Below the pieces are notes generated by a model that worked only from the letters and a program-made list of their open reading frames with translations, did not search any database and was not told the DNA's origin. DNA of 58,383 nucleotides, taken from a virus (taxonomy: Duplodnaviria > Caudoviricetes). Below, piece after piece: positions 40,696 through 57,953 of the stretch (position 1 is its first letter; each line of letters starts with the position of its first letter). The translations under genes and the position numbers were made by a program. The DNA is taken from IMG/VR virus record IMGVR_UViG_3300025018_000173, positions 1-58,383 of that record. One strand, 5' to 3'.

Positions 40696-41526
40696 GTGAC
40701 AAATCTACCCTATAGCTGGACAAGTATGAGCGCGGTTCCGAACCCGGACGGCTTCCCCGCGTGGATGCAACCCGGTGTGCTGGTCCTGAGAAAGACCGGC
40801 TGGGCTGCCTATAAAATCGTGAGGCTGCGCGTTCTGCGCGGCCTCACCCGCACCGTGCCCGTGATCGAGTTGGCGCACAGCCCGCACAGCGAAGCGCAGG
40901 GCGCGCTGAACTACTGCTTGCGCCCGTGGGCGCTGGTGCCGTTCAGCTTCACACACGTGCCGGAGGCAACAAGACGCACCAAAAGTCTACCCTCGGAGCA
41001 GACGCTGCCGGTCAAAGATAAATGGCCGACAGCGAAGCTGGACCCCGATACGGGGCTTCACGTCGTACCGGGGCTGCATGGCGTCGTCACGGCAGAGCCA
41101 CCCGACTGGTGGGCGCCGCTGAACCCGGAGACCGTGCTGGACGCCGCCGAGCGCGACTACCAGACGCGGCACAAGAACGTGTATTGGAACGAAGGCCGCG
41201 CTCGCTGGCAGGTGCAGGTTACGATGGGCGGCGGGATGGTGAACGGAGGCTGCTTCGACAGCATAGAGCAGGCCGTGGAGACCCGCGACGCCCTGCGTAA
41301 AGAGCACGGGCTCAAGCCGATCACCAACCCGCGCCCCAAGCTGCCTCATCGCGGGCCGGGGACCAGCGGCGTGCGCGCGGTGTATCCGCAGAACGGAAAG
41401 TGGATCGTGCGCATCAAGATCGACGGTAAACTGCGGCAGGTCGGCTACTTCGCCACAGTCGAGGCAGCCATCGCGGCGCGAGACCGGGCCGAGGCCGAGC
41501 GGGACGGGCTGCTACCGGACTGGTGA
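40696..41526 (+). CDS. Tandem AP2-domain DNA-binding protein
   Basis: KNVYWNEGRARWQVQV...GCFDSIEQAVETRD and SGVRAVY...KWIVRIKIDGK...VGYFATVEAAIAARD. Ends in PDW. Confidence 0.8.
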   Translation: MTNLPYSWTSMSAVPNPDGFPAWMQPGVLVLRKTGWAAYKIVRLRVLRGLTRTVPVIELAHSPHSEAQGALNYCLRPWALVPFSFTHVPEATRRTKSLPSEQTLPVKDKWPTAKLDPDTGLHVVPGLHGVVTAEPPDWWAPLNPETVLDAAERDYQTRHKNVYWNEGRARWQVQVTMGGGMVNGGCFDSIEQAVETRDALRKEHGLKPITNPRPKLPHRGPGTSGVRAVYPQNGKWIVRIKIDGKLRQVGYFATVEAAIAARDRAEAERDGLLPDW

Positions 41527-41555
41527 AAAGTGCTGCACGTCTCACTGCACATCTG
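41526..41555. repeat. Right arm of the 30-bp inverted repeat, opening an A-rich non-coding region (to about 41840)
   Basis: AAAAGTGCTGCACGTCTCACTGCACATCTG, followed by a further GCACATCT and an imperfect direct repeat ending AACGATAAA. Confidence 0.9.
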
Positions 41556-41849
41556 GTGCACATCTGGGAACCCTGTTGAGCAGCGAAACTGCTATCCCGC
41601 TCAAGTTACTGAAAAACAACGATAAAGCAGAGTGCACAACAGTGAACTTCTCCAACCACCGTAAAACAGCCCCAAGTCACCGGAAAATAACGATAAAACG
41701 ACCACAAAAAGTAAGACAAAACTAAGGCTCATGCCCCATATGCTTGAAGTTCCCCCTGCAAACTACCCTGTTGGTAGGGGGGACTTCGAGCAGGGCTGAG
41801 CCAGCCAGAAACCAGAGTTGTGAAGCCAGAACCAAGGAGCGAACCCCCG

Positions 41850-42236
41850 ATGAACGAACGTATTACATCACAGCAGGTCATTCTGCACACGCGGTACGGC
41901 TGGTCTTACGCCACCGATGCCGATAAGACCCGCCTGCTGCCGCCGCCCGGAAAGCTGACCCCTGCGCAGCGGATGCTGAACGACGCTGCCGCAGCAGGGC
42001 TGACCATCGAAGTCGTCTTCGAGGGCGAGACCGACTACACCGGGACCAACCCGGTCGAGGCGTGGGAAGCGATACTGGACTGCACCGAGCCCGCCGAGGT
42101 CCTGCTGACCGGGCCGGACATCAAGCGCGCGTGGGCGCTGGTGATCCACGAGAACGAAGAGGACGACCTCGTGGACTACCACATCGCCAGTTGGATCGAG
42201 GACTGGTGGAAGACCGTGGAGGGAGAGTACCAATGA
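41850..42236 (+). CDS. Hypothetical protein
   Basis: AAGGAG RBS, ATG 41850, 128 aa. Confidence 0.7.
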   Translation: MNERITSQQVILHTRYGWSYATDADKTRLLPPPGKLTPAQRMLNDAAAAGLTIEVVFEGETDYTGTNPVEAWEAILDCTEPAEVLLTGPDIKRAWALVIHENEEDDLVDYHIASWIEDWWKTVEGEYQ

Positions 42237-42508
42237 CCGTCACCCGCAAGGCGATCCGCAAGCGCCGCGAAGACGACCCGAGCGTCCGCACGATCACGGT
42301 GAAGCTGCCCGCGTCCCTTGCGCGGCGGCTGGACTGGCACCGCGAGCACAACGCAGACAGCATCACCGACGTCGTGGTCGCGGCGATGGACAAATGGCTG
42401 CCGGATTGTGGCGAGGGGCGCGTCGAGCCGCGTGAAGTTGTCGTGGTGGAGCGCAAGTCGCGAGCCAACGGGTCTGCGCCTGCCGCCGTGGAGATACCGG
42501 ATTGGTAG
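42233..42508 (+). CDS. Ribbon-helix-helix-like DNA-binding protein
   Basis: RTITVKLPASLARRLD...SITDVVVAAMDKWL. Ends in EIPDW. Confidence 0.65.
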   Translation: MTVTRKAIRKRREDDPSVRTITVKLPASLARRLDWHREHNADSITDVVVAAMDKWLPDCGEGRVEPREVVVVERKSRANGSAPAAVEIPDW

Positions 42509-42539
42509 CTTGACGCGGACAGCCGGGTCGTGGAAAAGT

Positions 42540-42580
42540 GAAGGCCGGACGCGAGCGAAACGTCCGGCCTTCGGTTCTTT
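42540..42580 (+). terminator. Terminator-like hairpin upstream of the primase gene
   Basis: 12-bp stem GAAGGCCGGACG/CGTCCGGCCTTC followed by GGTTCTTT, enclosed by a further GGTCGTGG/CCACGACC pairing. Confidence 0.5.
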
Positions 42581-42675
42581 GGATCCCACGACCAAGTCAG
42601 ATCCCAGATGTGGTAGCAATATGGCACGCAGATACAACGGCCGCAACCCCCAAAAACCGGCGCGGGGCTGGTCCC

Positions 42676-44856
42676 GTGGTTGAGTTTCGAGACCCCCACC
42701 AAGACCTGCCGGACTTTCGCAGGTGCAACGACATCGAGCCGCTCGAAGCGGCGCTGATCTACGCCCGGTCCGGCTTCTTCGTGGTCCTGATCGAAGAGTT
42801 GGGCAAGGCACCCCACCCCCTCATAAAACGCGGCTGGACCTCCAACAGCACCCGCGATCCCGCCGTCATCACGGACTGGTATCGGAAATACCCGAACGCC
42901 AACGTCGGCATCTCCGCCAGCCCCGAGTTCGTGATCCTCGACCTCGACGTGAAGGACGCGGACGCCAACGGACTGACCGCCTTCGCAGGACTGCATGAGC
43001 ACGTCCTCGGACCCACGGCGATCACGCCATCGGGCGGCGTGCACCGCATCTTCCGCCGCCCCGAGGCCGACGACCGCGTGAACCGCAACCTGTCGCCCCG
43101 CAACGGCGGCTTCGACTTCATGCAGGACAGACGGCGGCAGATCCTCGTGGCCCCATCTGTGGTCACGGACAGCGCCGGCGAGACGCGAAAGTACCGCTGG
43201 ACGCAGGGCGGGCAGCCCGCCCCGATGCCGAAGGCTGCGATCAACCGCATGTACGAACTGTCGGGACGCATTTCGGACACCGAGAACGACCCGCAGTACG
43301 CCCCGGAGACGCCGGAACTCGGCGAGCCGATCGAGCACCACATCGAACTCGACACGGACGACCGATCGCACGGTGCGTTCGCCCTCGCCCGCAACCTGTA
43401 TCAGCACCACGGGCACCGCAGCGACGCCGACATCCTCGCGACCGTGTGGGCCGTGGACGCCTTTCAGGAGGCCGCACGGGACCGCAGGGACACCACGGAG
43501 AGCGCGATCCACTGGCTGTGGAAGTACGCGGTCTGGCCCGCCGCCAAGAGCCGCTTCGTGCCGCCCACGTGGGACGGCTACGACCCCCGGTCCCCGGTCA
43601 CGAAGGCCATGCAGGAGGGACGCGATCTCGCCCCGTGGGAGGTCCCGCCAGAGGGCGACGTGTCGTCCGTCTTCGACAAGATACGGCCGCTGCACGAACT
43701 GGTCGCGGCCTACAACGAGCCGCCCGAGTTCGTGGTGCCCTACTACTTGCCGAAGGGCGTGCTGACGACGCTGTTCGGCAAGGACGGGACGGGCAAAACC
43801 ATGTTCATGCAGCGGGTGTGCACGCTGCTTGCCGCCGGGCGTCCGATCTTGGGGCGCCCCGGCGGACGCCGGTGCAAATGCCTCATGGTGCTGACCGAGG
43901 ACACCATGCCGGCGATCATAGACCGACAGAAGCGCATCCGGTCGGAGAGCGGCATCGACTTCCACGACGTGCGGGACACGCTGTTCATCCCCGAGAACCT
44001 CATGATGGCCGACGTGAAGATGGTCACGTTCGACCGGGAACTGCGCGCGGCCAACTCGCCCTTCTTCAAGGCCCTCATCGAGTACGTCGAGCGCGCCGAG
44101 CCTGAACTGGTGGTGCTCGACCCCATATCGGACATCTACGCCGACGAAGAGAACCGGCGCGAGAAGGTCAGCCAGTTCCTGCGCGCCATGAACGCGCTGG
44201 CCGTCGAGTTCAACATCGCAGTGGTGCTGCTGGGCCACCCGGCCAAGGCAGCCGACAGCGAATACTCCGGGTCTGGCGCGTGGTCCTCGAAGTCGCGGTC
44301 TCGCCTGTTCATGGAGGCCGCGTCGGACGTGCCGAACTCACCGGTCACGCTCATGCACCGCAAGGCCAGCTATGGAAAGCGGGCGGAAGACCTCACGCTG
44401 GTCTGGCAGGAGGGCGTGCTGAAAGACCTGACGCCCGTCGAAAAGGAAGAGTACGAGGAAGAGATGAAGACCCAGCTTATCGAGATGATCGTCGATTTCG
44501 TGAAGCGCGGGATCGAGAACGGCGAAGTGTTCACGGACACCCCGCAGAGTGGCGATCGGTTCCTGCCGCGCGCCATGGAACTGCGGGACATGGCCGGATT
44601 GTACGACGCCGAGACGATCCGCAAGCACTTGTCGGTCTGCTTCCAAGCCGGTCTGCTGATCCCGCAGGTGGTCTTCGATGGAAAGCAGGGCCGACCTGAG
44701 TTCAAGGACCGGGCTAGACGCCCCCGCGCAGGGATATATTACCCGACACCTGCCCGATCATCGCCGCCGACCGTACCGAAAGACCCCCGAACCCCCAACG
44801 AGTACGGCATCACCGAAGAGGAAAGCAAAACATGGCCGACGACACCGGACTGGTAG
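42676..44856 (+). CDS. Bifunctional primase-polymerase fused to an AAA_25/RepA-like helicase
   Basis: PNANVGI...LDLDVK...TPSGGVHRIF...LVAPS (Prim-Pol); GKDGTGKT, VVLDP and LLGHPAK...SGSGAW (helicase). Start uncertain, ORF open from 42538. Ends in PDW. Confidence 0.9.
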   Translation: MVEFRDPHQDLPDFRRCNDIEPLEAALIYARSGFFVVLIEELGKAPHPLIKRGWTSNSTRDPAVITDWYRKYPNANVGISASPEFVILDLDVKDADANGLTAFAGLHEHVLGPTAITPSGGVHRIFRRPEADDRVNRNLSPRNGGFDFMQDRRRQILVAPSVVTDSAGETRKYRWTQGGQPAPMPKAAINRMYELSGRISDTENDPQYAPETPELGEPIEHHIELDTDDRSHGAFALARNLYQHHGHRSDADILATVWAVDAFQEAARDRRDTTESAIHWLWKYAVWPAAKSRFVPPTWDGYDPRSPVTKAMQEGRDLAPWEVPPEGDVSSVFDKIRPLHELVAAYNEPPEFVVPYYLPKGVLTTLFGKDGTGKTMFMQRVCTLLAAGRPILGRPGGRRCKCLMVLTEDTMPAIIDRQKRIRSESGIDFHDVRDTLFIPENLMMADVKMVTFDRELRAANSPFFKALIEYVERAEPELVVLDPISDIYADEENRREKVSQFLRAMNALAVEFNIAVVLLGHPAKAADSEYSGSGAWSSKSRSRLFMEAASDVPNSPVTLMHRKASYGKRAEDLTLVWQEGVLKDLTPVEKEEYEEEMKTQLIEMIVDFVKRGIENGEVFTDTPQSGDRFLPRAMELRDMAGLYDAETIRKHLSVCFQAGLLIPQVVFDGKQGRPEFKDRARRPRAGIYYPTPARSSPPTVPKDPRTPNEYGITEEESKTWPTTPDW

Positions 44857-45407
44857 CCCCGCATCTCGTCAGCATCGACCCCGGACTGCGTGGTGCCGTG
44901 GCGATCTTCGACGCCGACGGAAACCCCCTCGAACTGCACGACATGCCGGTCCTGAAGAGCGGCGCGACAGGCAAGGACGAGATCGACGTGAACGGACTGG
45001 TAGCCATCCTGCCGCCCGGCGTGCAGGTCGTGCTGGAAGCGCAGCAGGCCATGCCGAAACAGGGCGTGGCGTCCACGTTCAAGACCGGGCTGGGCTTTGG
45101 CAAGCTGCTGGGCATGCTGGACGCGCTGGCGTTCCCCTACAAGGTCGTGCAGCCGCGGGCGTGGGCGAAGGCCGTGGGCAAGCCTGCCCGGAGCGACAAG
45201 GAATGGAACATCGGCGAGGCCCGGCGGCGCTGGCCTGCGTTCGCACCGCAACTGCTGAAATCCAAGGACGGACGGGCGGATGTGCTGCTGATCGGCGCGG
45301 CCGAGTTTGCGCAGCCCGCCCCGGCACCCAAGCCGCGCGCCAAGCCGGCGAAAAAACCAGCGCCCGCCCCGAAAAAAGATGTTGCACCGGAAATACCTGA
45401 CTGGTAA
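44832..45407 (+). CDS. RuvC-like Holliday junction resolvase
   Basis: SIDPGLRGAVA, VVLE...MPKQGVASTFKTG, KDGRADVLLI. Ends in EIPDW. Confidence 0.85.
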   Translation: MADDTGLVAPHLVSIDPGLRGAVAIFDADGNPLELHDMPVLKSGATGKDEIDVNGLVAILPPGVQVVLEAQQAMPKQGVASTFKTGLGFGKLLGMLDALAFPYKVVQPRAWAKAVGKPARSDKEWNIGEARRRWPAFAPQLLKSKDGRADVLLIGAAEFAQPAPAPKPRAKPAKKPAPAPKKDVAPEIPDW

Positions 45408-45448
45408 TACATGGGGGCAGAGCGAAGATTTAAGATGAAAGATCTCAG

Positions 45449-45874
45449 ATGTCAGACCCCCGCCTACACGGCTTCGAGTGCATCCCCGAGATGCTCCGCA
45501 AGTTCGGAGAACACGTCGAGTGGCCGCGTTTCACGTTTGAACTGGACCCGGCGCACACCCTGATAATGAAGCTGCTGCGCAAGGGGAAGCACCCCGGCGC
45601 CGCCTCCCTCGAGATTAAAGAGGGCGGGCTGTGGCTGGGCTATGTGACGGTCGCTGGCGAGTTCCAGCCGACGCACAACGCGAGCCGCATGCCGCGCCCG
45701 GTCAAGCTGCTGCTGTGGAACCTGCTTCAAGCGATCCGTCTCGATCCCGAGACCGCGTTCGCTGCGCACGGCATCCGCACCGGGACGTGCTGCGCCTGCG
45801 GGCGCACCCTCACGAACGCCGAGAGCGTCGAACTCGGCATCGGACCGATCTGCCGTGAAAGGATCTTCTCATGA
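45449..45874 (+). CDS. DUF6011-like zinc-finger protein
   Basis: CCACGRTLTNAESVELGIGPIC. Confidence 0.8.
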   Translation: MSDPRLHGFECIPEMLRKFGEHVEWPRFTFELDPAHTLIMKLLRKGKHPGAASLEIKEGGLWLGYVTVAGEFQPTHNASRMPRPVKLLLWNLLQAIRLDPETAFAAHGIRTGTCCACGRTLTNAESVELGIGPICRERIFS

Positions 45875-46206
45875 CCAGTCTGGGTGACATCTCAATCTCC
45901 GACCTCGAGTTGTCGGTGCGCGCCGTCAATGCCCTGCGCAACATCGGCGTGACCCCCGTCGAGCAGTTCATGAAGCTGGACCGGGGGACCGTGCTGCGGA
46001 CGCGCAGCGCAGGCGCGAAGACGTGGCGCGAGATCAGGGACATGCAGCCCAGTCTGCGCGACCACGGCGCGCTCGCCGACGCGGAGGTCGCCGTGTTCCG
46101 GGCAGCCGCCGCTCTTAATTGCGCGCTGGCCGACGCACCCGCCGGTCTCAAGGCCGGCGTCACGCGCGACGGGAACGTCGCCATCTACCGGAGGGTCTTC
46201 CCATGA
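45871..46206 (+). CDS. RNA polymerase alpha-CTD-like protein
   Basis: ISDLELSVRAVNALRNIGV...LRTRSAGAKTWREI aligns with alpha-CTD DDLELTVRSANCLK...LLKTPNLGKKSLTEI. Confidence 0.8.
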   Translation: MTSLGDISISDLELSVRAVNALRNIGVTPVEQFMKLDRGTVLRTRSAGAKTWREIRDMQPSLRDHGALADAEVAVFRAAAALNCALADAPAGLKAGVTRDGNVAIYRRVFP

Positions 46207-46613
46207 ACGCCGCGCAAATGATTTACGTCCATAACTGCCCCGGCGACTGGTACGCCGATCAACTGATCCGCCACGCCACCCCCGAAGAGCGCGCGCTGCT
46301 CGCGCCTGCGGTGCTCGAAGGCAACAGGGAACTGGCGGCGGAGGTCGATGAACTGACCGATCTGCTCGAGAAGGCTCAAGATGAAGCCCACGACAAGCGC
46401 GCCGCCGAAGAGGACGCCGAGACTGCGGCGGTCGAGCGCGACGAGGCTGACAGGCGGTTTTATAGCCTGCGCATCGACGTCCAAGAGGTCTTCGGCAAGA
46501 TCGAGAAGCTGGCTGCCGAGATTGATTGCAAAGAACTGACGGACCTCAAGGCCATCGTGGCGAGGCTGGACAAGCTGGCCGAGGACCTCGCCGACGCGGA
46601 GCGCAACGCATGA
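46203..46613 (+). CDS. Coiled-coil hypothetical protein
   Basis: 136 aa, ATGA overlap on both sides. Confidence 0.65.
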   Translation: MNAAQMIYVHNCPGDWYADQLIRHATPEERALLAPAVLEGNRELAAEVDELTDLLEKAQDEAHDKRAAEEDAETAAVERDEADRRFYSLRIDVQEVFGKIEKLAAEIDCKELTDLKAIVARLDKLAEDLADAERNA

Positions 46614-49042
46614 AGGTCCGGCTGTTCCCATATCAGCGCGAGGACGTGAACCGGTTTCATGCGCAGCTTGATGCGACCAAGGTGGCAGTATCGACGCACG
46701 AGCAGGGGTTGGGCAAAGCACAACCTGTGCGCGAGCCGGTTCTCACGCCGCACGGTTGGCAGCCCATCGGTAAGCTGAAAGTCGGTGACACGATCTGCAC
46801 CGCTGACGGCGGCGAGCAGACCGTGGTCGGGATCTACCCGCAGGGTTTGCGCGAGATCTACGCGGTCATTTTCGACGACGGCGGCACGACCCTGTGCGAC
46901 GCCGAGCACCTATGGCTGGTCTACGACAGCGAGCACCCAAAGCGCGCGCCCGAGGTGAAGTCTCTGGCCGAGATCATGCGGCGGGGCGTCAAGCGCAAGA
47001 GCGGGTCGCACGATCGCAACCGGTGGGCTGTGCCGATCGCCGAGCCTGCGCACATGAAGGGCCCTGAGATGCGCGTCCCCGGCTACACGCTGGGCGCGCT
47101 CATTGGAGACGGACACCTGAACGGCATCACCGTTTCTCTGTCCGCCCCGGCGTGCAAGACCGCCGTGTGGATGCGCGTGAAAGCGGAAGTCGAAAGGGCG
47201 TTCATAGGCATCCGCGCGCATAGAACCGAGTACGACGGGTCGTGCGGCAATTTGAACATCGTCAACGACGACGATCAGTACCGCAACCCGTTCAAGGCAG
47301 AGATGGCGGCGCTCGGTCTGGACGTGAAGTCCGGCGAGAGGTTCATCCCCACGAGCGTATTCGTGCAGCCCGTCGATTACCGCCTGAACGTGCTGCGCGG
47401 CCTCATGGACACTGACGGGTCGTGCCGGCGCAACCGGGCCACATATCACTCCTGCTGCGAGGCGCTCGCGAAAGACGTGGCGATGCTGGCGCGGTCGCTC
47501 GGCATGACCGCGAAGCTGAGGGCGTACGACCGCACGCAAGAAAACAAAGGGCTCGAGTATCAAGTCTCTGTCCGCTCTTGGGACCTGTGCCCGTTCTTCG
47601 ATCCGTGCAAGGCGGGCAAGTGGTCGCCGATCACGAACAAGGCGAAGAAGCGGTCCATCGTCGGCGTTCGGGCCGCGGGAACCGAACACGCGGTCTGCAT
47701 CGCGGTGTCTTCGCCGGACCGGCTGTACGTCACACGACACCACGTGGTGACGCACAACACCCTCATGGCCATTACCCTGTGCGACGAGCGCAAGTACCGG
47801 CACGTGCTGGTCCTGTGCCCTGCGATTGCGCGCCTGTCGTGGCGGTCGGAGATCCAGAAGTGGATGCAGGTTCATCGCGACGTGACCGTCATAGGCGGGT
47901 CGAAGGACATCGACAAGCTGCGCAACCGCAAGCCGTCGTCCATCGTGGTCTGCACCTACGATCTGTGCCGCAACGATGCCGTGCGCGAGACACTGTGCGG
48001 CTATGGCTTCGACTTCGCGATCCTCGACGAGTTCCAGATGCTGCGCAACCCGGACGCCAAGCGGACGCTGGCCGTCTACCATCGGCGCGTGGGCGTGCTG
48101 GCGAAAATACCCGACGTCATGATCATGTCGGGCACGCCCGTCGTGTCGTGGCCGCTGGATATGTGGGCGCATCTGGCCCGGTTCGCGGCCGAGCGCATCA
48201 TGGACGGCGACAAGCGCATGACGCACGAGCAGTTCCGTGACCGCTATCACATCACCCGGCGGCAGCCGATTGCCGGCAAGCGCGACCCGCTCATCAAGAT
48301 CGTGGCGACGCGCAATCTCGACGACCTGCGTGCGCGCGTGGACGGGTGGGCGGTGCGCCGCCGGAAAGCGGACGTGCTCAAGGACCTGCCGCCCATGATG
48401 GTGCGGGACTGGCCGCTCGAGATAACACCGGCGGACCGGCGCAACTTCATGGCTATGCTCGAGGATGAACTGCCGCCCGAACTGGTGCTGCGGATCCGGC
48501 AGGCCAAGACCGAAGCCGAACTGGCGGCGGTCGCTGACCTCGTGCTGAACGGCAGCCCGCATGTGGCGAAGGTCGTGCGCATCTGCGGCGTGGCCAAGGT
48601 CCCGGCCCTGCTGCGCAGTCTCAAGGCTGAACTGGCCGAGAGCGATTACAAGCTGGCCCTCATGTGCTGGAACCACGACGTCGTGGACATGCTCATGGCC
48701 GGGCTGCAAGAGTTCCGCCCGGTGGCGATCACCGGCAAGCACAGCACGTCGCAGCGGACAGCCGCTGTGGCAGCCTTCATGGACGACCCCGCGTGCCGGG
48801 TGTTCGTCGGTCAGATCAGCGCCTGTGGCACCGCCCTGACGCTCACGTCGTGCAGCCGCGTGCTGTTCCCCCAGCTTAGCTGGACCCCCGGTGATAACGC
48901 GCAGGCGGCTGCACGCTTCCATCGCATCGGGCAGCGGGACAGCGTGGACGTCCGCATCCCCACGATGCCGGGGTCCATCGACGCGGCGTTCAACCGGGTC
49001 CTGTCGAAGAAGCTGGCCGCAGCGAAAGAGGTCGTGGACTGA
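46610..49042 (+). CDS. SNF2-family helicase with intein
   Basis: LFPYQ, EQGLGK|T, LVLCPA, ILDEFQ, MSGTP, WTPGDNAQAAARFHRIGQ. Confidence 0.95.
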   Translation: MKVRLFPYQREDVNRFHAQLDATKVAVSTHEQGLGKAQPVREPVLTPHGWQPIGKLKVGDTICTADGGEQTVVGIYPQGLREIYAVIFDDGGTTLCDAEHLWLVYDSEHPKRAPEVKSLAEIMRRGVKRKSGSHDRNRWAVPIAEPAHMKGPEMRVPGYTLGALIGDGHLNGITVSLSAPACKTAVWMRVKAEVERAFIGIRAHRTEYDGSCGNLNIVNDDDQYRNPFKAEMAALGLDVKSGERFIPTSVFVQPVDYRLNVLRGLMDTDGSCRRNRATYHSCCEALAKDVAMLARSLGMTAKLRAYDRTQENKGLEYQVSVRSWDLCPFFDPCKAGKWSPITNKAKKRSIVGVRAAGTEHAVCIAVSSPDRLYVTRHHVVTHNTLMAITLCDERKYRHVLVLCPAIARLSWRSEIQKWMQVHRDVTVIGGSKDIDKLRNRKPSSIVVCTYDLCRNDAVRETLCGYGFDFAILDEFQMLRNPDAKRTLAVYHRRVGVLAKIPDVMIMSGTPVVSWPLDMWAHLARFAAERIMDGDKRMTHEQFRDRYHITRRQPIAGKRDPLIKIVATRNLDDLRARVDGWAVRRRKADVLKDLPPMMVRDWPLEITPADRRNFMAMLEDELPPELVLRIRQAKTEAELAAVADLVLNGSPHVAKVVRICGVAKVPALLRSLKAELAESDYKLALMCWNHDVVDMLMAGLQEFRPVAITGKHSTSQRTAAVAAFMDDPACRVFVGQISACGTALTLTSCSRVLFPQLSWTPGDNAQAAARFHRIGQRDSVDVRIPTMPGSIDAAFNRVLSKKLAAAKEVVD
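46718..47758 (+). mobile_element. Class 3 intein (347 aa) with in-frame LAGLIDADG endonuclease
   Basis: Starts AQP; EHLW (block B Trp), AVCIAV (block F Cys), VVTHN|T. LGALIGDG and LRGLMDTDG motifs. Confidence 0.9.
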
Positions 49043-49260: not shown

Positions 49261-49822
49261 GTATATCATCTCCGACACCCATTTCGGGCACGGGAACATC
49301 ATCGAACTCGGCAAGCGCCCGTTCGAGAACGTGCAGCGCATGAACGACCTGCTGATCGAGAAGTGGAACAGCCGGGTCACACCGCGCGACACGGTCTATC
49401 ACCTTGGGGATTTCGGCTGGAAGAACACCGAGTATAATCTCGACATCCTGTCGCGCCTGCGGTTCAAGAAGCTGGTGCTGGTCTGCGGCAACCACGACAG
49501 CGCCAAGACCTTGCGCGCCTTCGACCAGATGGGCGTGCAGATACAGGACTACCTCGAGGTCGCGACACCCAAGCATAACATCCGGCTGTGCATGTTTCAC
49601 TATCCCCTGCTCGAGTGGAACGGCTTCTACCGCGGCGCGATCCATGCGCATGGGCACACGCACAGCAAGATCTTTTCCGAGTTCCCCGGCCGCTACAACG
49701 TCTGCGTTGAAGCGATCGGATACGCCCCAAAGTCGCTTGCGACGTTGGAAACCGAGCACGTCGAAGCCGTGCGCATACCACAGGAGACCCGTGATGGGCA
49801 TGAAGATCACCCTCGAAATTAA
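49253..49822 (+). CDS. Calcineurin-like metallophosphoesterase
   Basis: ISDTHFGH, HLGDF, GNHD, FHYP, HGHTH. Confidence 0.95.
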   Translation: MAEYIISDTHFGHGNIIELGKRPFENVQRMNDLLIEKWNSRVTPRDTVYHLGDFGWKNTEYNLDILSRLRFKKLVLVCGNHDSAKTLRAFDQMGVQIQDYLEVATPKHNIRLCMFHYPLLEWNGFYRGAIHAHGHTHSKIFSEFPGRYNVCVEAIGYAPKSLATLETEHVEAVRIPQETRDGHEDHPRN

Positions 49823-51275: not shown

Positions 51276-51723
51276 GCTGACCCTTCCCATCGACATCGAC
51301 GCCGAGGTCATGGACGAAGCCACCCTCGCGCGCATCATGGACATGGCGCCCATCATCACGAAGTGGCTGGACGCCGTGAAGGCCGAGGCCAAGCGCCGCG
51401 TGAACACCGGCAAGGACGTGCCCGGTTATCACATGGCGCCCGGCAAGCGCAGCCGCGCATGGACATCCGACGAAGCTGCCAAGGAAGGCATGGCGGCGGT
51501 CGGGATCAACGATTTCTACGAGGAACCGAAGCTGAAATCGGTTGCCGCCGTAGAGAAGGATTTGCCCGAGGCGAAAGCCGACGTGCTCAAGAAGTTCTGG
51601 CAGTGGCACCCCGGAACACCGTCGCTCAAGAAGGCTGACGGTCCTCGCGCAAATAACGCCCCGTCTACCATGTTCACCGATCAGGCACGGGTCATGGACG
51701 GCAACGCAACACCTGATTGGTAA
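51265..51723 (+). CDS. DUF2800-type C-terminal domain as a separate gene
   Basis: WLDAVKAEA...VPGYHMAPGKRSRAW...PKLKSVAAVEK...GTPSL. GGAGG RBS. Ends in PDW. Confidence 0.7.
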   Translation: MSSKLTLPIDIDAEVMDEATLARIMDMAPIITKWLDAVKAEAKRRVNTGKDVPGYHMAPGKRSRAWTSDEAAKEGMAAVGINDFYEEPKLKSVAAVEKDLPEAKADVLKKFWQWHPGTPSLKKADGPRANNAPSTMFTDQARVMDGNATPDW

Positions 51724-51743: not shown

Positions 51744-52451
51744 ATGGCAAGCTATCTCATCAAGGACACCAACGGCGTCATCTGGACGCCGACTGCACTT
51801 ATCCGCTGGCCGAACCTGTTCGTGCCGTCGCTGCCGAAGGGTGCGGACCCCAGCAAGACCCCGCAGTTCTCCGTCACGGCGGTGCTGTCGGCCAAGGAGC
51901 CGGACTTTGAAGAGTTCCGCGCCGTGCTGTGGGAAGAACTCGACCGCGCGTGTGTCGCAAAGCACGGCGCGAACATCGCCGAAATGCGGCAGCGCGGGCG
52001 GCTCAAGCTGGCGGTCAAGCGCAACAACGACCCCGAGGTCGGCAAGATGGGCCAGCCGGGGTTCAAAGAGCGCCCCGACGGGCTGCACTTTGGCGCGACC
52101 ACGCAGTTCAAACCGCCGGTCAACGACATGAACGGCATGGGCATGTCGTCCGATCGTAGCGACGAGATCTACGACGGCATGTTCGGTCAGATCGGCGTTA
52201 CGGCGTGGGGCTGGACGCACCCGACGGGCGGCAAGGGCGTGTCCCTGAACCTCGTGGGTGTGGTCAAGCGGTTCGACGGTGATCGCCTCGGCGGCGCACA
52301 GGCCGACATGAGCGCCGTGCAGGCGGACGACAACGTGCCCGAGGGTGCGAAGGTCTCGCCCGCGCATGACGTCGCTGGTGGCGGCGCTGGTGGCGCGCAC
52401 GACACCGCCCCGGCACAGACCGGCGGCGGCGGCGGAAACTACGGGTTCTGA
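51744..52451 (+). CDS. Single-stranded DNA-binding protein (DUF2815 / gp2.5-like)
   Basis: WPNLFVP, FSVT, IYDG, GKGVSLNL.GV...DGDRLGG. Flexible tail ending YGF. Confidence 0.85.
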   Translation: MASYLIKDTNGVIWTPTALIRWPNLFVPSLPKGADPSKTPQFSVTAVLSAKEPDFEEFRAVLWEELDRACVAKHGANIAEMRQRGRLKLAVKRNNDPEVGKMGQPGFKERPDGLHFGATTQFKPPVNDMNGMGMSSDRSDEIYDGMFGQIGVTAWGWTHPTGGKGVSLNLVGVVKRFDGDRLGGAQADMSAVQADDNVPEGAKVSPAHDVAGGGAGGAHDTAPAQTGGGGGNYGF

Positions 52452-52459: not shown

Positions 52460-53692
52460 ATGGGTCGGCCGCGGGAGATACTGCTCGACTACGAGACGCG
52501 CAGCACGTGCGATCTCACGAAGCGTGGCGCGCATGTCTATGCGGCCGACCCCTCGACGTCGATCCTGTGCTACGCATGGGTCGATGTGAACGAACGGTCC
52601 AAGCGCGGGGTCTACCGCGCTTGGCCCAACGCCAACGAGCCGCACCCGGACTGGGTCTATGACCCGCACGCCGCGATCTACGCATGGAACGCCGCCTTCG
52701 AGATCGCCATAACGAAGGACGTTGCGACCCGGCAGTTCGGCTGGCCAGACATATCCGCCGATCGGTTCGTGTGTCTCATGAAGATGGCCGCGCACGCCGG
52801 CATGCCGCTCGCCCTCGACCGCGCGACCGTGGCCGCGGGGCTCGAGGTCGCCAAGGACATGACCGGGCATCGCATGATGATGCGCTGGTGCAAGCCGCTG
52901 CCGCAGTCGAAGGCCGACAAGGAAGCCATCAAGGCGGGCAAGACCCCGCCGGTGCGCTGGGCCGACGACCCCGCAGAATATGACATCCTGTGCGCCTATG
53001 CCGAGGATGACGCACGTGCCGAACTTGGTATGCTGGACGCCCTGACCGGGTCCGCGTCGGACTTCGAGATGGAGATGATGCGGATTGACCAGCGCATCAA
53101 CGATCGTGGTTTCAGGATCGACACCGAGGCCGCCGAGGGTGCGGCCAAGATCGCGGCGGAAGAGGTGAAACGGCTGAACGCCGCAATGAGAAGGCTGACC
53201 AATGGCGAAATCACCACATGCAACCAGCGCGACCGCATCCTTGCTTTCGCAGCCCGACACGGTGTGGATCTGCCCAACCTGCGGTCGGGCGAGGTTAAGG
53301 ATACCTTGGCCGGGGAAGAGCACGACGGTGCCGAAGACGATCTTGCGCAAGTGGCGCTACCTCCTATTGTGCGTCAAGTTTTGGAACTCCGGGTTGAAGC
53401 AAACAAGGCTTCCGTCGCCAAGCTACGAGCAATGGTGCGCGGAGTTGGAACGGACGGGCGCTTTCGCGGCGGCTTCGCGTACGGTGGTGCAGCCAAGACC
53501 CTGCGGTGGGCAGGACGGCGAGTGCAACCGCACAACTTCTCCCGAGAGAACCCCCCCGCCGAGGTTCCAGAGGAAGTATGGTTTGACGCCCTCGCATCCG
53601 GCGACCGGGAATACTTCGCCAGCCTCTTGCCCGACGGGATGACGGTCATGGACGGCCTGAAAAGCAGTCTGCGCGGCATGATCATTCCGTGA
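52460..53692 (+). CDS. DNA polymerase family A, N-terminal chain (3'-5' exonuclease and thumb)
   Basis: LDYETRS, AWNAAFE, YAEDD, DQRINDRG, YGGAAKTLRWAGRRVQPHN. Stops at LRGMIIP, just before motif A. Confidence 0.9.
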   Translation: MGRPREILLDYETRSTCDLTKRGAHVYAADPSTSILCYAWVDVNERSKRGVYRAWPNANEPHPDWVYDPHAAIYAWNAAFEIAITKDVATRQFGWPDISADRFVCLMKMAAHAGMPLALDRATVAAGLEVAKDMTGHRMMMRWCKPLPQSKADKEAIKAGKTPPVRWADDPAEYDILCAYAEDDARAELGMLDALTGSASDFEMEMMRIDQRINDRGFRIDTEAAEGAAKIAAEEVKRLNAAMRRLTNGEITTCNQRDRILAFAARHGVDLPNLRSGEVKDTLAGEEHDGAEDDLAQVALPPIVRQVLELRVEANKASVAKLRAMVRGVGTDGRFRGGFAYGGAAKTLRWAGRRVQPHNFSRENPPAEVPEEVWFDALASGDREYFASLLPDGMTVMDGLKSSLRGMIIP

Positions 53693-53716
53693 TACCATAG
53701 ACCAAGGAGAGACCAG

Positions 53717-53992
53717 ATGAACGACCAGACCCTGACCGAAGACCTGCTCGCCGGATACCGCGCCGCCGCCCAGCAGGCGCTGGATGCAGGGCGGACCGCC
53801 ATCGCGGAGCGCAACGCCTTGCAGCGCGAGTGCGACCGGCTGGCGGCACAGGTCGAGGATCTGAAAGCCGAGACCCGAGACTTCAAGAGCCCTCCTCCGG
53901 TGTTCTGCGCCCGGTGCGGTGCGCCGCGCGACAACCATCCGTACCGCCACCCGTTTGTTCCCGCGCCCATCACACGCGGAGAGCCAAGATGA
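53717..53992 (+). CDS. Hypothetical protein (coiled coil with CxxC)
   Basis: AAGGAG RBS, 91 aa. Confidence 0.7.
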   Translation: MNDQTLTEDLLAGYRAAAQQALDAGRTAIAERNALQRECDRLAAQVEDLKAETRDFKSPPPVFCARCGAPRDNHPYRHPFVPAPITRGEPR

Positions 53993-54693
53993 TCCGCCTT
54001 GCCCCCGCCCTCGCCCTGCTGGCGCTAACCAGCGCCGCACACGCCGCCCCTGTGACCGTCTGGAACGGTCCCGGTCCTCGCGCCTGCAACAGCGCCTGCA
54101 CGGAGCCGTGGGCGCTGTCCGAGGCTGCGCGGGCCATGCCCGCCGACGTGCACGCCGCCATGGCCGCGGCCATTGAGGCCGGCCCAGCCGAGCGCACGCG
54201 CGTCATGCCGGGGCAGATCCTCGCCATGAACACATACGCGAGCGCCGAGGGTCGGCCGCTGGCCGAGGTGCGGCCGATCGTTGCCGATCTGGTCGCCCCG
54301 GAACCTGCGCAGGGGTGGTACGTCCGCGACGCCGCCGGCACGCGCTGGGGGTTCGTGCGGGTGGACGGCTGCGCCAACTGGCAGGTTACGGTAGGCACGC
54401 CGCCAGCGACGCCGGTGCAGACCTACGCGGGCCCGATGACGGTCTGGGGTCCGGGCTATCTGGGCCCGATCGGCTACGGCACACGGGGTGGCGGCGCGTC
54501 CAGCTACTTCAAGACCCACACGACAGTGAACAACTGGACCGACGACGGTCACGCAGAGCCGCCGAGGATTGTGCCGCTGCCGCAGGTGCCCGGTCAAACG
54601 CCGCCCCCGATCCCGCTGCCCGCCGCCGCGTGGCTGCTGGCATGCGGCGTCGCTGCGCTGATCGCAGCCAAACGGGGCTTGCGCCGCCAGTAA
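53989..54693 (+). CDS. Secreted protein with VPLPA-CTERM (exosortase) sorting signal
   Basis: Signal peptide MIRLAPALALLALTSAAHA and C-terminus PIPLPAAAWLLACGVAALIAAKRGLRRQ. Confidence 0.8.
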   Translation: MIRLAPALALLALTSAAHAAPVTVWNGPGPRACNSACTEPWALSEAARAMPADVHAAMAAAIEAGPAERTRVMPGQILAMNTYASAEGRPLAEVRPIVADLVAPEPAQGWYVRDAAGTRWGFVRVDGCANWQVTVGTPPATPVQTYAGPMTVWGPGYLGPIGYGTRGGGASSYFKTHTTVNNWTDDGHAEPPRIVPLPQVPGQTPPPIPLPAAAWLLACGVAALIAAKRGLRRQ

Positions 54694-54735
54694 AAACGCG
54701 GTAATACCTGCTAACGCGACCGAGAGGAACCCCCG

Positions 54736-55125
54736 ATGCCTGACGCCGACGCATGGCGGCGCTGCGACGTTCATAACTATTCCGTTGCCGATGAGTGGGG
54801 CGATCACAGCCACACGATCAGCGAGGTGCGCTGGACGCGGTACGAGTTCGTGCGCGCGACACCGAAAGGCGTCTGGCTTCGAGGTTTCCTGACTGGTGAG
54901 TTCTTCGTGCTCGGCACTTCGCTTCGACAGCGTGCGGTGCCCACGCGCCAGCTTGCCGTGCAGGACGCGATCGCGCGGAAGAGGCGCCACATCCTCGGGT
55001 GCGAGGCCCGGCTAGAACGCGCCTTGACCCACATGGAACAACTTAAAAGGGTAGAGCGACATGAACGTGAACGAGGCTCGCCAGATCGGCGAGAGCAAGC
55101 TGCGGGTATCCAAGCCCCTGTTTGA
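54736..55125 (+). CDS. Hypothetical protein
   Basis: GAGG RBS, VRATPKGVWL motif. Confidence 0.7.
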   Translation: MPDADAWRRCDVHNYSVADEWGDHSHTISEVRWTRYEFVRATPKGVWLRGFLTGEFFVLGTSLRQRAVPTRQLAVQDAIARKRRHILGCEARLERALTHMEQLKRVERHERERGSPDRREQAAGIQAPV

Positions 55126-55327
55126 GAAGAGCATGGAGGTCGCCAAGGCCATGGACGTCGAGGCCCGGCACATGGGCCCGATGACCCTCGCACTGGCGAT
55201 CATGGGCGTGTCCCGCGCCCACCAGTCCGAGGACCTGACCGCCGAACTGACCGACGCGCTGGCGCTGGTCTCGAAGGCCGAGAACGAGTGGCGCATGGAG
55301 CGCATGACTGAGAGGCTGCGGTCATGA
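55061..55327 (+). CDS. Hypothetical protein
   Basis: 88 aa, helical. Confidence 0.55.
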   Translation: MNVNEARQIGESKLRVSKPLFEKSMEVAKAMDVEARHMGPMTLALAIMGVSRAHQSEDLTAELTDALALVSKAENEWRMERMTERLRS

Positions 55328-55641
55328 TCGCGGGCTGCGGAAAAGCGCCGGCCGAAGACGAGCAGCGCGAACATGACAAGGCGTGCTGGGAGGTGGCCAA
55401 GGCCATGACCGGTGCGCTTCCCGTGGTCGCGCATGCACACAGCGCCTGCATGCCCGGCGCGGTGTCGGAGACCGTCGCCGACATGCGGGCTTTGTACCGC
55501 ATGTCCTTCTGCGAGAGCGACGCGCAGTACCATGCGTTCCTCAAGGAACTGATAGGCCGTGCTGGGGCGCTGTACGATGCGGCCCGCGCCGAGGTCGAGC
55601 GCACAGGAGACGATCCGCATGCTGGATCTACCCTGCACTGA
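55324..55641 (+). CDS. Hypothetical protein
   Basis: 105 aa, ATGA overlap. Confidence 0.55.
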   Translation: MIAGCGKAPAEDEQREHDKACWEVAKAMTGALPVVAHAHSACMPGAVSETVADMRALYRMSFCESDAQYHAFLKELIGRAGALYDAARAEVERTGDDPHAGSTLH

Positions 55642-57367
55642 GCCTCGGCTGGTCGTCGCGGACCTAGCCCAGATCGAGGCCCGCGCCTTGGTCTGGGCAG
55701 GCGGGCAGTGGGATGTGGTGGAAGCCTTCGAGCGGTACGACGCTGCGGTCGCGGCCGGCGAGCCGGAGGACGTGATCAAGAAGCTGGACATCTACACGGT
55801 GAACGGCGCCAAGATGAACATGGACCGGCAGGGCGGCAAGGTTGCCACCTTGTCCTGCTTTGGTGCGGACACGCAGGTTCTGGTGAAGAAGGGACTTGAT
55901 ACGTTTACGCTACCCATAGTAGAGGTTACGTCCGAGTATCAAGTGTGGGATGGCGTAGAATGGGTATCGACAGCGGGCGCGATTGCAAGAGGGCGCCGTT
56001 CGACGATTGTGATTGGTGGGGTGGCTGTGACGCCCGACCACGCTTTGCTGTGTGGCGAGACTTGGAAGCCGGCGTCGGAGGTCAGAACCTGCGCAAGCAC
56101 CCTAACCCGAGCGTTGGCGACCGGTTCGGCGAACTTACCGTCCGAGGTTTTGTCGTCGGTGTTCGCGGCGGGCTTCTCCGCGTCATCGTGCAGTGCTCGT
56201 GCGGCGCACCACGCCACGAAGCCGGCATCAGCAACCTCAGATCCGGGCGCAGCACCCGGTGCATGCGTTGCGCCGCGGTCGCTTCGCGTGACACCCGCAC
56301 CAGCAAAGAGAAGCGGTATCTGCGATACGCTGGCGTCTTGCCTGACGACAAGCATCGCCGCCGCCTGCTCAACCGCATCTCGGCTATTATGCAGCGGTGC
56401 CACAATCCTCGGAGCAAAAATTATGCCGGATACGGCGGGCGCGGCATCCTCGTACACGCGCCGTGGCGCGCTGCCGACGGCCGCGCTGACTTCCTGCGCT
56501 ACCTACTTACGCTCGACGGGTGGGACAACCCGCACCTCGAGTTGGACCGGAGAGACAACAACAGGGGGTACGAGCCGGGCAACCTTCGGTTTATCGAGCG
56601 CCGAAAGAACGCCAGAAACAAACGCACCGTCGCCAGTTTGCAGCGTGAAATCGACAGTCTACGATCTGACCTTGTGTGGGCCAAGGCAACGCTTCACCGT
56701 CTGGACATCCCTTGGGCCCCTGATAGCGCATAACTGCGGTTATCAGGCCGGGCGTTTCACGGTGTGCGTCTTCGCCAAGACCTACGGGCTGAACCTGACC
56801 GAAGAGCAGGGGCAGGCCATCGTGACCGCATGGCGCGAGGCGAACCCCATGGTCGTGCGGCTGTGGAAGGCCGAAGAGGACGCCGCCAAGGCCGCGATCG
56901 AAAACCCCGGTGTACCGCAGGACCGCGGCAAGCTGGGCGCGTACCTGTTCAACGGGCAGCATCTGCTGCGCAAGCTGCCGTCCGGCCGGTGCATCTGCTA
57001 TCGCAACGCGACGCTCGAGATGAAACAGACGCCGTGGGGCCAGCGGCGCAGGGTTGTGGGCTACGATGCCAACTACTTTGCCAAGAACTCGCGCACGTTC
57101 GTGCGGCTGAAAGCCTATGGCGGGCTGTTCGTCGAGAACCTGATCCAAGCCATGTGCCGCGACATCCTCGCGGTCGGCATTTACCGCGCCGAGCGCGCCG
57201 GGTTGCAGGTCATCTTGCACGTGCACGACGAGATCGGCGTGCGGTCTACGCAGCCCGCCGTGGACGGCGTGCTGCTGGTCCGGGCCATGACATCGCCGAT
57301 CCCGTGGTGCAGGGGGCTGCCCATTGCATCGTCGGTCGATGTGCTGACCCGGTATCGCAAGGCATAA
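55619..57367 (+). CDS. DNA polymerase family A, C-terminal chain (palm and fingers) with intein
   Basis: AGGAG RBS and ATG 55619. Motif A LVVADLAQIEAR, motif B RQGGKVATLS|CGY, ENLIQAMCRD, motif C HVHDEI. Confidence 0.9.
   Translation: MLDLPCTEPRLVVADLAQIEARALVWAGGQWDVVEAFERYDAAVAAGEPEDVIKKLDIYTVNGAKMNMDRQGGKVATLSCFGADTQVLVKKGLDTFTLPIVEVTSEYQVWDGVEWVSTAGAIARGRRSTIVIGGVAVTPDHALLCGETWKPASEVRTCASTLTRALATGSANLPSEVLSSVFAAGFSASSCSARAAHHATKPASATSDPGAAPGACVAPRSLRVTPAPAKRSGICDTLASCLTTSIAAACSTASRLLCSGATILGAKIMPDTAGAASSYTRRGALPTAALTSCATYLRSTGGTTRTSSWTGETTTGGTSRATFGLSSAERTPETNAPSPVCSVKSTVYDLTLCGPRQRFTVWTSLGPLIAHNCGYQAGRFTVCVFAKTYGLNLTEEQGQAIVTAWREANPMVVRLWKAEEDAAKAAIENPGVPQDRGKLGAYLFNGQHLLRKLPSGRCICYRNATLEMKQTPWGQRRRVVGYDANYFAKNSRTFVRLKAYGGLFVENLIQAMCRDILAVGIYRAERAGLQVILHVHDEIGVRSTQPAVDGVLLVRAMTSPIPWCRGLPIASSVDVLTRYRKA
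55856..56734 (+). mobile_element. Intein (293 aa) in polymerase motif B
   Basis: Starts CFGADTQVLV, block B VTPDHALL, block F VYDL, ends LIAHN followed by Cys. Confidence 0.95.
55945..56733 (+). CDS. HNH-type endonuclease in an alternative frame within the polymerase intein
   Basis: GDRFGELTV...QCSCG...NLRSGRSTRC and MQRCHNP...YGGRGI...LDRRDNNRGYEPGNLRF...NARNKR. True start uncertain. Confidence 0.85.
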   Translation: MGWRRMGIDSGRDCKRAPFDDCDWWGGCDARPRFAVWRDLEAGVGGQNLRKHPNPSVGDRFGELTVRGFVVGVRGGLLRVIVQCSCGAPRHEAGISNLRSGRSTRCMRCAAVASRDTRTSKEKRYLRYAGVLPDDKHRRRLLNRISAIMQRCHNPRSKNYAGYGGRGILVHAPWRAADGRADFLRYLLTLDGWDNPHLELDRRDNNRGYEPGNLRFIERRKNARNKRTVASLQREIDSLRSDLVWAKATLHRLDIPWAPDSA

Positions 57368-57377
57368 GCGCGGTGCG

Positions 57378-57593
57378 TCACCACGCCGGCACGGCCGGTG
57401 CAGCGGATGCGGGGAACACGCCGATGCTTTCGTTGGCCGCGTCGGCCTGCTCTTGTGTGAGGAAGCCGCGCTCGACCAGCACGGCGGTCACGGCGTTGCG
57501 GATGAAGGCGCTGCGCGGGTCGGGGATGGCATCGAACACGGGCTGCGGCAGTCGAACGCTGGTTACGGGGGTGCCCAAGGTGGTATCCTCCAT
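57378..57593 (-). CDS. Small ribbon-helix-helix-like regulator
   Basis: TSVRLPQPVFDAI...RSAFIRNAV. The only credible minus-strand gene in this arm. Ends in VPAW. Confidence 0.55.
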   Translation of the reverse strand: MEDTTLGTPVTSVRLPQPVFDAIPDPRSAFIRNAVTAVLVERGFLTQEQADAANESIGVFPASAAPAVPAW

Positions 57594-57704
57594 GGTTGAC
57601 CACTGCCCCTGATATACTGTTTTCTGCCGGTATTACAAACGCTGTTTACACAAAAACCGCACGCATGTATTACTGGTTCACGCCACCCGGAAAGAGGACC
57701 CCCC

Positions 57705-57953
57705 ATGGCAAGCAACACCGACACCCTGCTGAAGACGTCGGTCGATGAGATACTCGACCTGCACCGCGAAATCGACGACGCCAAGCTGATCATGCAGGGC
57801 CACTACGAGGCGCTGAAAGAGGCTGGCTTCCACGTGCCCAGCGTTCGCAAGGCCGTGACGCGCATGAAGAAAGAGCGCGCGCACGTGCTCGAGCAGGACC
57901 GCGAACTCCACGAGATCGAACAGAGCCTCGGGCTCGAGATGCCCGACTGGTGA
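57705..57953 (+). CDS. GapR / DUF2312-like nucleoid-associated protein
   Basis: LKTSVDEILDLHREIDD...YEALKEAGFHVPSVRKAV..MKKE...EQSLG follows the GapR pattern. Ends in EMPDW. Confidence 0.75.
   Translation: MASNTDTLLKTSVDEILDLHREIDDAKLIMQGHYEALKEAGFHVPSVRKAVTRMKKERAHVLEQDRELHEIEQSLGLEMPDW

Follow-up and report, generated by a model that had tools for sequence, protein, structure and literature searches.

Genes ending in Pro-Asp-Trp

The window analysed here (58,383 bp) is the whole of the linear IMG/VR virus record IMGVR_UViG_3300025018_000173, for which CheckV estimates a completeness of 78%; its G+C content is around 65%, and our own codon-likelihood gene caller finds 63 genes in it. Six of these genes end with codons for Pro, Asp, and Trp that are followed directly by a stop codon (PDW-stop), and this three-residue ending, in the following referred to as the tag, is the subject of the present analysis. 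The minus-strand block of the window (1-33.9 kb) encodes virion proteins, including the major head protein, the portal, the large terminase subunit (in two open reading frames, ORFs), and an ORF of 4,414 amino acids (aa), and the plus-strand block (35-58 kb) constitutes an early replication and regulation module. All six tagged genes are situated in the latter module. None of the 27 called minus-strand genes of the virion block ends in PDW, in agreement with an earlier reading of the letters by a model (the sequence-only reading), which had noted the absence of the tag from structural proteins.

Reading upstream from the six stops yields LLPDW (stop at 41526), EIPDW (42508), TTPDW (44856), EIPDW (45407), ATPDW (51723), and EMPDW (57953), exactly as that reading had it, and the ending VPAW, which it had pointed out as a variant on the minus strand, is found as well (Table 1). 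Several proteins of this one genome that are unrelated to each other have an identical short motif as their last residues. From residue frequencies, 0.0038 PDW-stop endings would be expected among the 63 called genes, compared with the six observed, and chance is excluded as their origin. Anywhere in the called proteome, PDW occurs nine times (1.04 expected), and the six frames together hold 13 PDW codon triples, seven of which have a stop directly after them. A PDW-stop string that lies out of frame inside an ORF at 54736-55125 (phrog_13631, E 4e-14) is compatible with chance and is not regarded as a tag, since around 0.16 such strings are expected in six frames according to our own estimate; a natural variant does not have the ORF that contains it. 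An internal in-frame PDW that is followed by a second Trp in the first tagged protein might, as a speculation, represent a former C-terminus that was read through into a downstream gene.

The tag is situated on a primase-helicase, on a RuvC-like resolvase, and on a DUF2800 exonuclease; further carriers are two or three small DNA-binding proteins as well as a GapR-like protein. Among the labels proposed earlier, those of the primase-helicase (Prim-Pol, E 7.7e-23, and AAA_25, E 2e-22), of RuvC (phrog_1770, E 1.9e-18), and of the C-terminal DUF2800 part are confirmed, and the AlphaFold model of RuvC, with a mean predicted local distance difference test score (pLDDT) of 91.4, resembles MOC1/RuvC structures (Foldseek E 4.4e-13). 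The label GapR-like, however, is weak (Pfam GapR_DNA-bd at E 0.0027, which is under the family cut-off; GapR matches in PDB at E ~0.3), and the label AP2-like was given by eye to the 266-aa protein (40726-41526), for which no Pfam family is found; two modules of around 50 residues in this protein match PHROG families annotated as HNH endonuclease (phrog_99, E 1.3e-24). The label ribbon-helix-helix (RHH) is, for the protein 42233-42508, a lead only (Atlas feature score of 0.94 to CopG/RHH clusters, no match to a hidden Markov model, HMM), and for the minus-strand ORF 57378-57593 it was likewise given by eye. A PDB sequence search with the AP2-like protein and the RHH protein 42233-42508 returned nothing meaningful.

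The DUF2800 protein is distributed over two ORFs in different frames with an overlap of 11 nt (ATGAGTTCTAA): the N-terminal part (50472-51275) covers positions 6-259 of the family model (E 1.1e-42) and the tagged C-terminal part (51265-51723) positions 250-367 (E 3.8e-14). This two-ORF state might reflect a gene that is genuinely split, with coupled translation of its parts, or else a frameshift or a mistake in the assembly. In the primase-helicase, the codons of the tag overlap the start of the RuvC gene in a different frame.

Considering aromatic ends in general, Trp is the last residue in 8 of the 63 genes, and Trp, Phe, or Tyr in 14. A second type of aromatic C-terminus is found in the protein that binds single-stranded DNA (SSB; 51744-52451, NYGF), in the protein 49791-50468 (SHGF), in the N-terminal DUF2800 part (DYEF), and in the protein 3171-3428 (RLGF). 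These endings in Gly-Phe or Glu-Phe, together with the 14 aromatic ends, hint at a wider use of terminal aromatic handles in the phage. An Atlas search with the protein 49791-50468 returned nothing usable.

Table 1. Positions of the tags, of related strings, and of further features in the window
Feature	Position	Strand	Remarks
Tag 1, CCG GAC TGG TGA	41515-41526	+	ends gene 40726-41526 (alternative start 40696), 266 aa
Tag 2, CCG GAT TGG TAG	42497-42508	+	ends gene 42233-42508, 91 aa, putative RHH
Tag 3, CCG GAC TGG TAG	44845-44856	+	ends primase-helicase gene 42538/42676-44856
Tag 4, CCT GAC TGG TAA	45396-45407	+	ends RuvC-like Holliday junction resolvase gene 44832-45407
Tag 5, CCT GAT TGG TAA	51712-51723	+	ends ORF 51265-51723, C-terminal third of DUF2800 PD-(D/E)XK exonuclease
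Tag 6, CCC GAC TGG TGA	57942-57953	+	ends gene 57705-57953, 82 aa, weakly GapR-like
Variant tag, Pro-Ala-Trp-stop	57378-57389	-	ends ORF 57378-57593, 71 aa; RHH-like by eye; no family match
Out-of-frame PDW-stop string	54888-54899	+	inside ORF 54736-55125
Internal in-frame PDW-W	41101-41112	+	in the first tagged protein, immediately ahead of the two AP2-like modules; preceded by CCA (rare, A-ending)
RuvC linker stretch deleted in a natural variant (run X5)	45314-45361	+	48 nt; joint 45313->45362; in-frame, 16 residues lost, tag kept
T7 gp2.5 / Enc34-type SSB	51744-52451	+	untagged, ends GGGGGNYGF; Enc34_ssDNA-bd E 4.3e-8; phrog_112 E 1.2e-17
Family A-type DNA polymerase, N-terminal half	52460-53692	+	untagged; phrog_17
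4,414-aa single ORF	14232-27476	-	directly upstream of terminase genes
Terminase large subunit, two adjacent ORFs	13306-14232 and 12520-13296	-	phrog_7579 (E 8e-30) for the ATPase-like part and phrog_38 (E 4.6e-5) for the C-terminal one

Conservation of the ending and drift of the linker

Concerning the primase-helicase, seven database matches were obtained, one of which is the protein of the window itself. The homologues at 66, 55, 46, and 43% identity end in TKPDW, NPPNW, DAPDW, and ELPDW, respectively, i.e., in P-[D/N]-W in all four cases, and the matches at 25 and 28% identity are without the motif. In an alignment of five sequences (the window protein and these four homologues), P724 and W726 are invariant and no invariant column exists between G686 and P724; past the last conserved block, G-[IV]-[WY]-[FY], the tails comprise 37, 26, 38, 18, and 29 residues and are unrelated in sequence. 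In the case of RuvC, 8,464 representatives were obtained at E <= 0.001 by an exhaustive search without a profile, and the best 150 of them were examined: one of them, at 71% identity, has a PDW end (AMPDW), the other 149 (at most 49% identity) have none, and two of the 150 end in Trp. The window protein continues for 41 residues after the last conserved RuvC motif, compared with a median of 17 in those 97 of the best 150 representatives in which that motif is present.

A loss of the tag from close relatives, fixed beforehand as the observation that would speak against it, was not encountered, as the tag is kept in four of four primase-helicases and in the one RuvC protein. Orthologues have preserved the motif, and the linker ahead of it differs between them in sequence as well as in length. 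The wider families are without the tag and the linkers diverge freely, which bears out the earlier proposal of selection on the C-terminal peptide of these unrelated DNA-acting proteins; as judged from such comparisons, selection on the tag as a peptide is well supported. Since the tag is kept in close orthologues, is absent from the wider families, and follows a drifting spacer, it has become attached to otherwise ordinary families in a single small clade. This clade may include prophages, because one of the relatives sits on a 477-kb NCBI contig.

The fold of RuvC ends near residue 160 and is followed by a Pro/Ala/Lys-rich linker of 31 residues; the tail reads AEFAQPAPAPKPRAKPAKKPAPAPKKDVAPEIPDW. 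Strain differences, considered here at 40 of the 437 positions that differ in public reads and contigs, include a natural deletion within this linker (Table 1), and the contig with the deletion (run X5) is also without an alphaCTD-like gene described below; the contigs of the same run that cover tags 5 and 6 are around 4% diverged. In the AlphaFold model, RuvC residues 161-191 have no secondary structure and a pLDDT of 80-87. The assertion of the sequence-only reading that the tag mostly follows a flexible linker therefore stands as far as the composition and the natural length variation of the RuvC tail are concerned, whereas the pLDDT of this tail is not low. The model of the primase-helicase is poor (mean pLDDT of 59.4), with values below 50 at residues 663-699 and 719-726.

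Near-identical phage DNA (region 40696-46206) is present in metagenomes of aquifer, hot-spring, and cold-spring origin: nine public runs from six studies hold this region, six of them with at least half of the sampled words, and one of these six best-covered runs may be the source sample. No RNA run is found among the public runs listed.

With the five-sequence primase-helicase alignment, no relative was found among viral contigs, one distant locus at 26% identity was found among metagenome contigs, and one, again distant, among genome contigs; the last of these belongs to an uncultured Tropicimonas, matches the ATPase part at 36% identity, and has no PDW-stop. In the 401 genomes of the family of this Tropicimonas genome, the alignment has distant ATPase-domain matches in 26, and an SSB search of the same 401 genomes gave no match. 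At 15 loci of those genomes no PDW end was found, as read from the longest plus-strand frame over the midpoint, which in several cases (99-188 aa) is clearly not the matched gene. Scans of viral contigs with the primase-helicase, the N-terminal half of the polymerase, and the N-terminal DUF2800 part as single proteins found nothing, and in cultured phages and plasmids, blastn and tblastn retrieved no more than distant matches to domains. The homologue search with the GapR-like protein returned the protein itself only, and that with the C-terminal DUF2800 part among longer proteins returned nothing, so that these two tagged families add no evidence from orthologues.

Probable docking on a shared partner and its alternatives

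On balance, we consider it probable that P-[D/N/A]-W-COOH is a C-terminal docking epitope which its carriers share and which serves for binding to one common partner. The motif itself is best read as a short linear peptide motif that appears to be specific to a small clade of uncultured phages; it would bind a partner, presumably the same for all six proteins. The terminal Trp, its free carboxylate, and the adjacent Asp would fit into one pocket on this single partner, and the carriers would be tethered to, and compete for, one platform on the phage DNA, like the tools on a toolbelt. Candidates for the partner would be, on the side of the phage, the gp2.5-type SSB, the polymerase, or an early protein without annotation and, on the side of the host, a hub, for example the beta clamp.

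Several points weigh against docking. No binder for the tag peptide was identified. The clamp families PF09116 (gp45) and PF00712 (beta clamp) have no match at E <= 1 in the window, a negative result that covers these two Pfam families in a 78%-complete contig with several early proteins without a family, and divergent clamps escape HMMs. PDW contains one hydrophobic residue, unlike the hydrophobic consensus of clamp-binding motifs, and the model of RuvC does not itself call the tail disordered, as the pLDDT given above implies. In the relatives, the tag is known from primase-helicase and RuvC proteins alone and not from their genomic context. A purely peptide-level model leaves the rare A-ending codon before Pro in five of the six tags unexplained, and signals for docking and for degradation are indistinguishable from sequence alone.

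A more specific form of the docking reading is possible, but we put it forward as tentative: PDW-COOH would be the client tag of an undescribed toolbelt, the receptor of which would be not a canonical clamp but an early protein, the T7-type SSB, or a host beta clamp gripped in a non-canonical manner; it would couple the carriers in a small phage lineage of groundwater and springs, and a layer at the mRNA level (the rare A-ending codon) would tune the making of the tag.

The main rival to docking is a shared degron or anti-degron, by which an AAA+ protease or its adaptor, of the host or of the phage, would jointly remove, remodel, or spare the early DNA proteins; we regard this as unlikely, though it deserves to be taken seriously. 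Tags of the ssrA and MuA types are C-terminal recognition signals for proteases, and an extreme C-terminus exposed after unstructured sequence is the usual place of such signals; with them, the PDW tag would share a short exposed C-terminal signal for one machine. The occurrence of the tag on regulators as well as on enzymes also suits a degron, and the conservation in primase-helicase and RuvC fits it equally well as docking. The motif, however, differs from the familiar C-terminal degrons with non-polar ends such as LAA, and the 31-residue spacer of RuvC and the 18-38-residue tails of the helicases look more like tethers that provide reach; furthermore, no protease adaptor was recognised in the window, where no search aimed at adaptors was made. 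Highly improbable, in our view, is an action in cis, in which each tail would turn back onto the protein that bears it, for example as a DNA mimic that inhibits this protein or as a cap that stabilises it, without any shared partner. The pLDDT of the RuvC tail could mean packing on the core, and would in this respect agree with such an action, yet a matching pocket would be needed on each of six unrelated folds, linkers range from 18 to 38 residues among orthologues, the natural deletion of 16 residues is tolerated, and the stretches below a pLDDT of 50 in the low-confidence primase-helicase model likewise stand against it.

The remaining alternatives operate at the level of codons, RNA, or DNA. 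Within the six tags, variation is confined to the wobble positions and the stop codon, and the amino acids are fixed: Pro is encoded by CCG (three times), CCT (twice), and CCC (once), Asp by GAC (four times) and GAT (twice), and the stops are, in order, TGA, TAG, TAG, TAA, TAA, and TGA. The codons before Pro are, in the same order, CTA, ATA, ACA, ATA, ACA, and ATG; synonymous variation, three types of stop, and an A-ending codon before Pro in five of six tags had all been described in this way by the earlier reading. Among the codons for their own residues in early genes, CTA, ATA, and ACA account for 1.8%, 9.3%, and 9.7%, respectively, and the probability of at least five A-ending codons in six is between 1e-5 (against wobble A genome-wide) and 1.5e-3 (against the around 20% wobble A of these tails). 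A signal in translation or mRNA, in which the nascent PDW and a slow A-ending codon four before the stop modulate termination, pausing, or release and are read by the ribosome, would account for this bias, for the rare codons CCT and GAT (each in two of six tags), and for the internal PDWW, which also follows an A-ending codon. The residue at -4 is itself not conserved (L, I, T, I, T, and M in the window; K, P, A, L, and M in relatives), which is in line with such a signal. Against such a signal stand the use of all three stops, the unrelated sequences downstream of the six stops, and the differing gene spacing; an ACC...GGU mini-hairpin is part of the minimum-energy fold at three of the six sites, and a single site of the six has a more stable fold than its shuffles (z -3.05, compared with -0.96 to +1.08 at the other five). 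Wobble A is, moreover, already raised in these tails generally, and there is no obvious reason for a restriction to DNA-acting proteins, such that we consider this explanation quite improbable. Neither tRNA genes nor Rfam families were found in the window, and with no tRNA gene in this 78%-complete contig, a phage tRNA for the rare codons is not the explanation within it.

Least probable of all, and only marginally credible, is an element of the DNA at gene ends, be it a palindromic ACC-N5-GGT binding site, a target of homing or recombination, or a scar, of which the peptide would be a side effect. When one mismatch is allowed, ACCNGAYTGGT occurs 15 times (4.67 expected; none of 100 shuffles reached 15), ACC-N5-GGT occurs 28 times (12.47 expected from shuffles that ignore codon structure), and a copy out of frame exists at 54888. 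On the other hand, the excess of ACC-N5-GGT is modest once the tags are removed, and the exact copies of ACCNGAYTGGT are five tags and the in-frame internal PDWW at 41101, none being intergenic. All six tags are in one codon phase and exactly at the stop, with their variation exactly at wobble positions, the PNW of one relative has changed at a position that is fixed in the window, and the 20 largest repeat families, out of at least 60, include no longer direct repeat that contains a tag. As to the nucleic-acid component that the sequence-only reading had left as a possibility, the codon bias at -4 speaks for it, whereas a consistent RNA hairpin, a longer DNA repeat, and a free-standing DNA motif were not found.

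Known docking ends, candidate partners, and neighbouring genes

Returning to docking, the closest described arrangement is, by analogy, that of T4 gp43, gp55, and gp33, a replication enzyme and transcription factors, on the clamp gp45: excerpts of PMC2988020 describe their clamp-binding C-terminal ends as highly similar and interchangeable, hydrophobic and acidic, and the gp55 linker before the epitope as divergent and variable in length. Common to both are an end that is invariant, linkers that drift (here of 18-38 residues), and carriers that comprise enzymes as well as regulators. In T4, however, the receptor is a known clamp encoded by the phage, whereas neither of the two clamp Pfam families searched is found in the window; here, moreover, the motif is P-D-W with one aromatic residue, the six or seven carriers include a resolvase, an exonuclease, and a primase-helicase, and the polymerase is untagged. 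The architecture is the same as that of the T4 ends, and what differs is the motif, the larger number and different kinds of clients, the untagged polymerase, and the lack of a recognisable clamp in the window.

T7 gp4 carries a tail similar to that of gp2.5. As in T7, where replisome proteins are docked to partners through an aromatic last residue (for gp2.5, excerpts of PMC5686142), the tag ends in an aromatic residue, and the present phage possesses both a gp2.5-type SSB and a tagged primase-helicase. Unlike in T7, its tails are not strongly acidic, the SSB end is a different one (NYGF), and the tag extends to proteins of recombination and DNA binding. The tip of bacterial SSB has the sequence D-D-D-I-P-F. 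A role of this tip (SSB-Ct) in binding proteins of DNA metabolism is described in excerpts of PMC7913777 and PMC3401449; in common with the PDW tag, it has a terminal aromatic residue with a free carboxylate, Pro and acidic residues nearby, and a position at the end of a linker, which in bacteria is disordered, and it is read by pockets on many proteins. The direction, however, is reversed: the bacterial hub carries the tag and its clients have the pockets, whereas here many clients are tagged. Compared with the acidic-I/L-P-F consensus, the phage SSB ends in GGGGGNYGF, and PDW is situated on six other proteins, such that an assignment to SSB-Ct does not hold.

Bacterial beta-clamp motifs follow the consensus QL[SD]LF and archaeal or eukaryotic PIP boxes Qxx[LIM]xx[FY][FY]; as in the present case, a short motif, in many instances at the C-terminus, recurs on many unrelated DNA-acting proteins, and there it serves binding to one ring-shaped hub. 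PDW fits neither consensus, and the last five residues of the six endings contain no Gln and no paired hydrophobic residues. This misfit lowers the likelihood of membership in the clamp-binding motifs but not that of a non-canonical clamp contact, which is possible. Clamps have been reviewed (PMC9690074, of which excerpts are considered here), and the late activator of phage Mu is described in excerpts of PMC12867686 as using the host clamp.

Within the phage, the gp2.5-type SSB and the polymerase are candidate hubs, and the SSB is, by analogy, an attractive hub candidate. When DUF2815 and gp2.5-type SSBs are crystallised, a molecule places its C-terminus in the concave sheet of the adjacent one, and contacts of gp2.5 with the polymerase and with the primase-helicase implicate its tail (both from excerpts of PMC5686142); because the C-terminus is held by a neighbour in such crystals, this type of SSB has a surface that accepts a terminal peptide. 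Co-folding of residues 1-190 of the SSB, its core, with the 36 C-terminal residues of RuvC gave no answer (score 0.00, without controls) and speaks neither for nor against this candidate.

Concerning the polymerase, its C-terminal half is located around 1.9 kb away in the ORF 55559-57367, which opens with an endonuclease-like region (phrog_93). The gap between the halves (53717-55641) holds small accessory genes and shows natural deletions at 53803-54962 (run X5) and 54729-55059 (run X2). A free-standing, untagged alphaCTD-like protein of 111 aa, which resembles the C-terminal domain of RNA polymerase alpha (45871-46206; E 2.5e-9 in Pfam and as low as E 7e-9 with rpoA models of NCBIfam), was considered as a hub and set aside: its gene is absent from variant contigs of runs X2 and X5, and a variant contig without it keeps the RuvC tag.

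Shared terminal docking motifs, such as clamp-binding motifs, SSB tips, and the T7 tails, wire replisomes and repair machines together. The known wiring motifs were each found by biochemistry in a model system, whereas in this uncultured phage the wiring diagram would be readable from the sequence itself, naming six or seven clients at once. Among these are types absent from the T4 and T7 examples as given in excerpts of PMC2988020 and PMC5686142, namely a RuvC-type resolvase, a PD-(D/E)XK exonuclease, a GapR-like protein, and RHH-type proteins. If the receptor can be recovered by means of the peptide, this would bring to light either a hub protein not known before or an unfamiliar use of a host hub, and the tag would become a portable one for recruiting proteins to replicating phage DNA; if, instead, the degron holds true, a new recognition signal for the coordinated turnover of early phage proteins would be at hand. 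Full-text literature searches of limited depth found no published description of such a tag, which is weak evidence of its novelty.

Some neighbouring genes are of interest in their own right. The replication and regulation module also holds an untagged phosphoesterase next to the tag carriers, and a likewise untagged helicase of the SNF2 family (46610-49042) contains an intein-like insert within its first ~390 residues (LAGLIDADG_3, E 1.2e-7; Hom_end; weak Hint_2), such that PHROG matches to terminase and primase in this insert probably reflect inteins. Inside the polymerase gap, a secreted-looking protein of 234 aa (53989-54693) has a start like that of a signal peptide and a C-terminus with weak similarity to the VPLPA-CTERM sorting domain (TIGR03370, E 0.0032, under the cut-off), which is possibly a clue to the lineage of the host.

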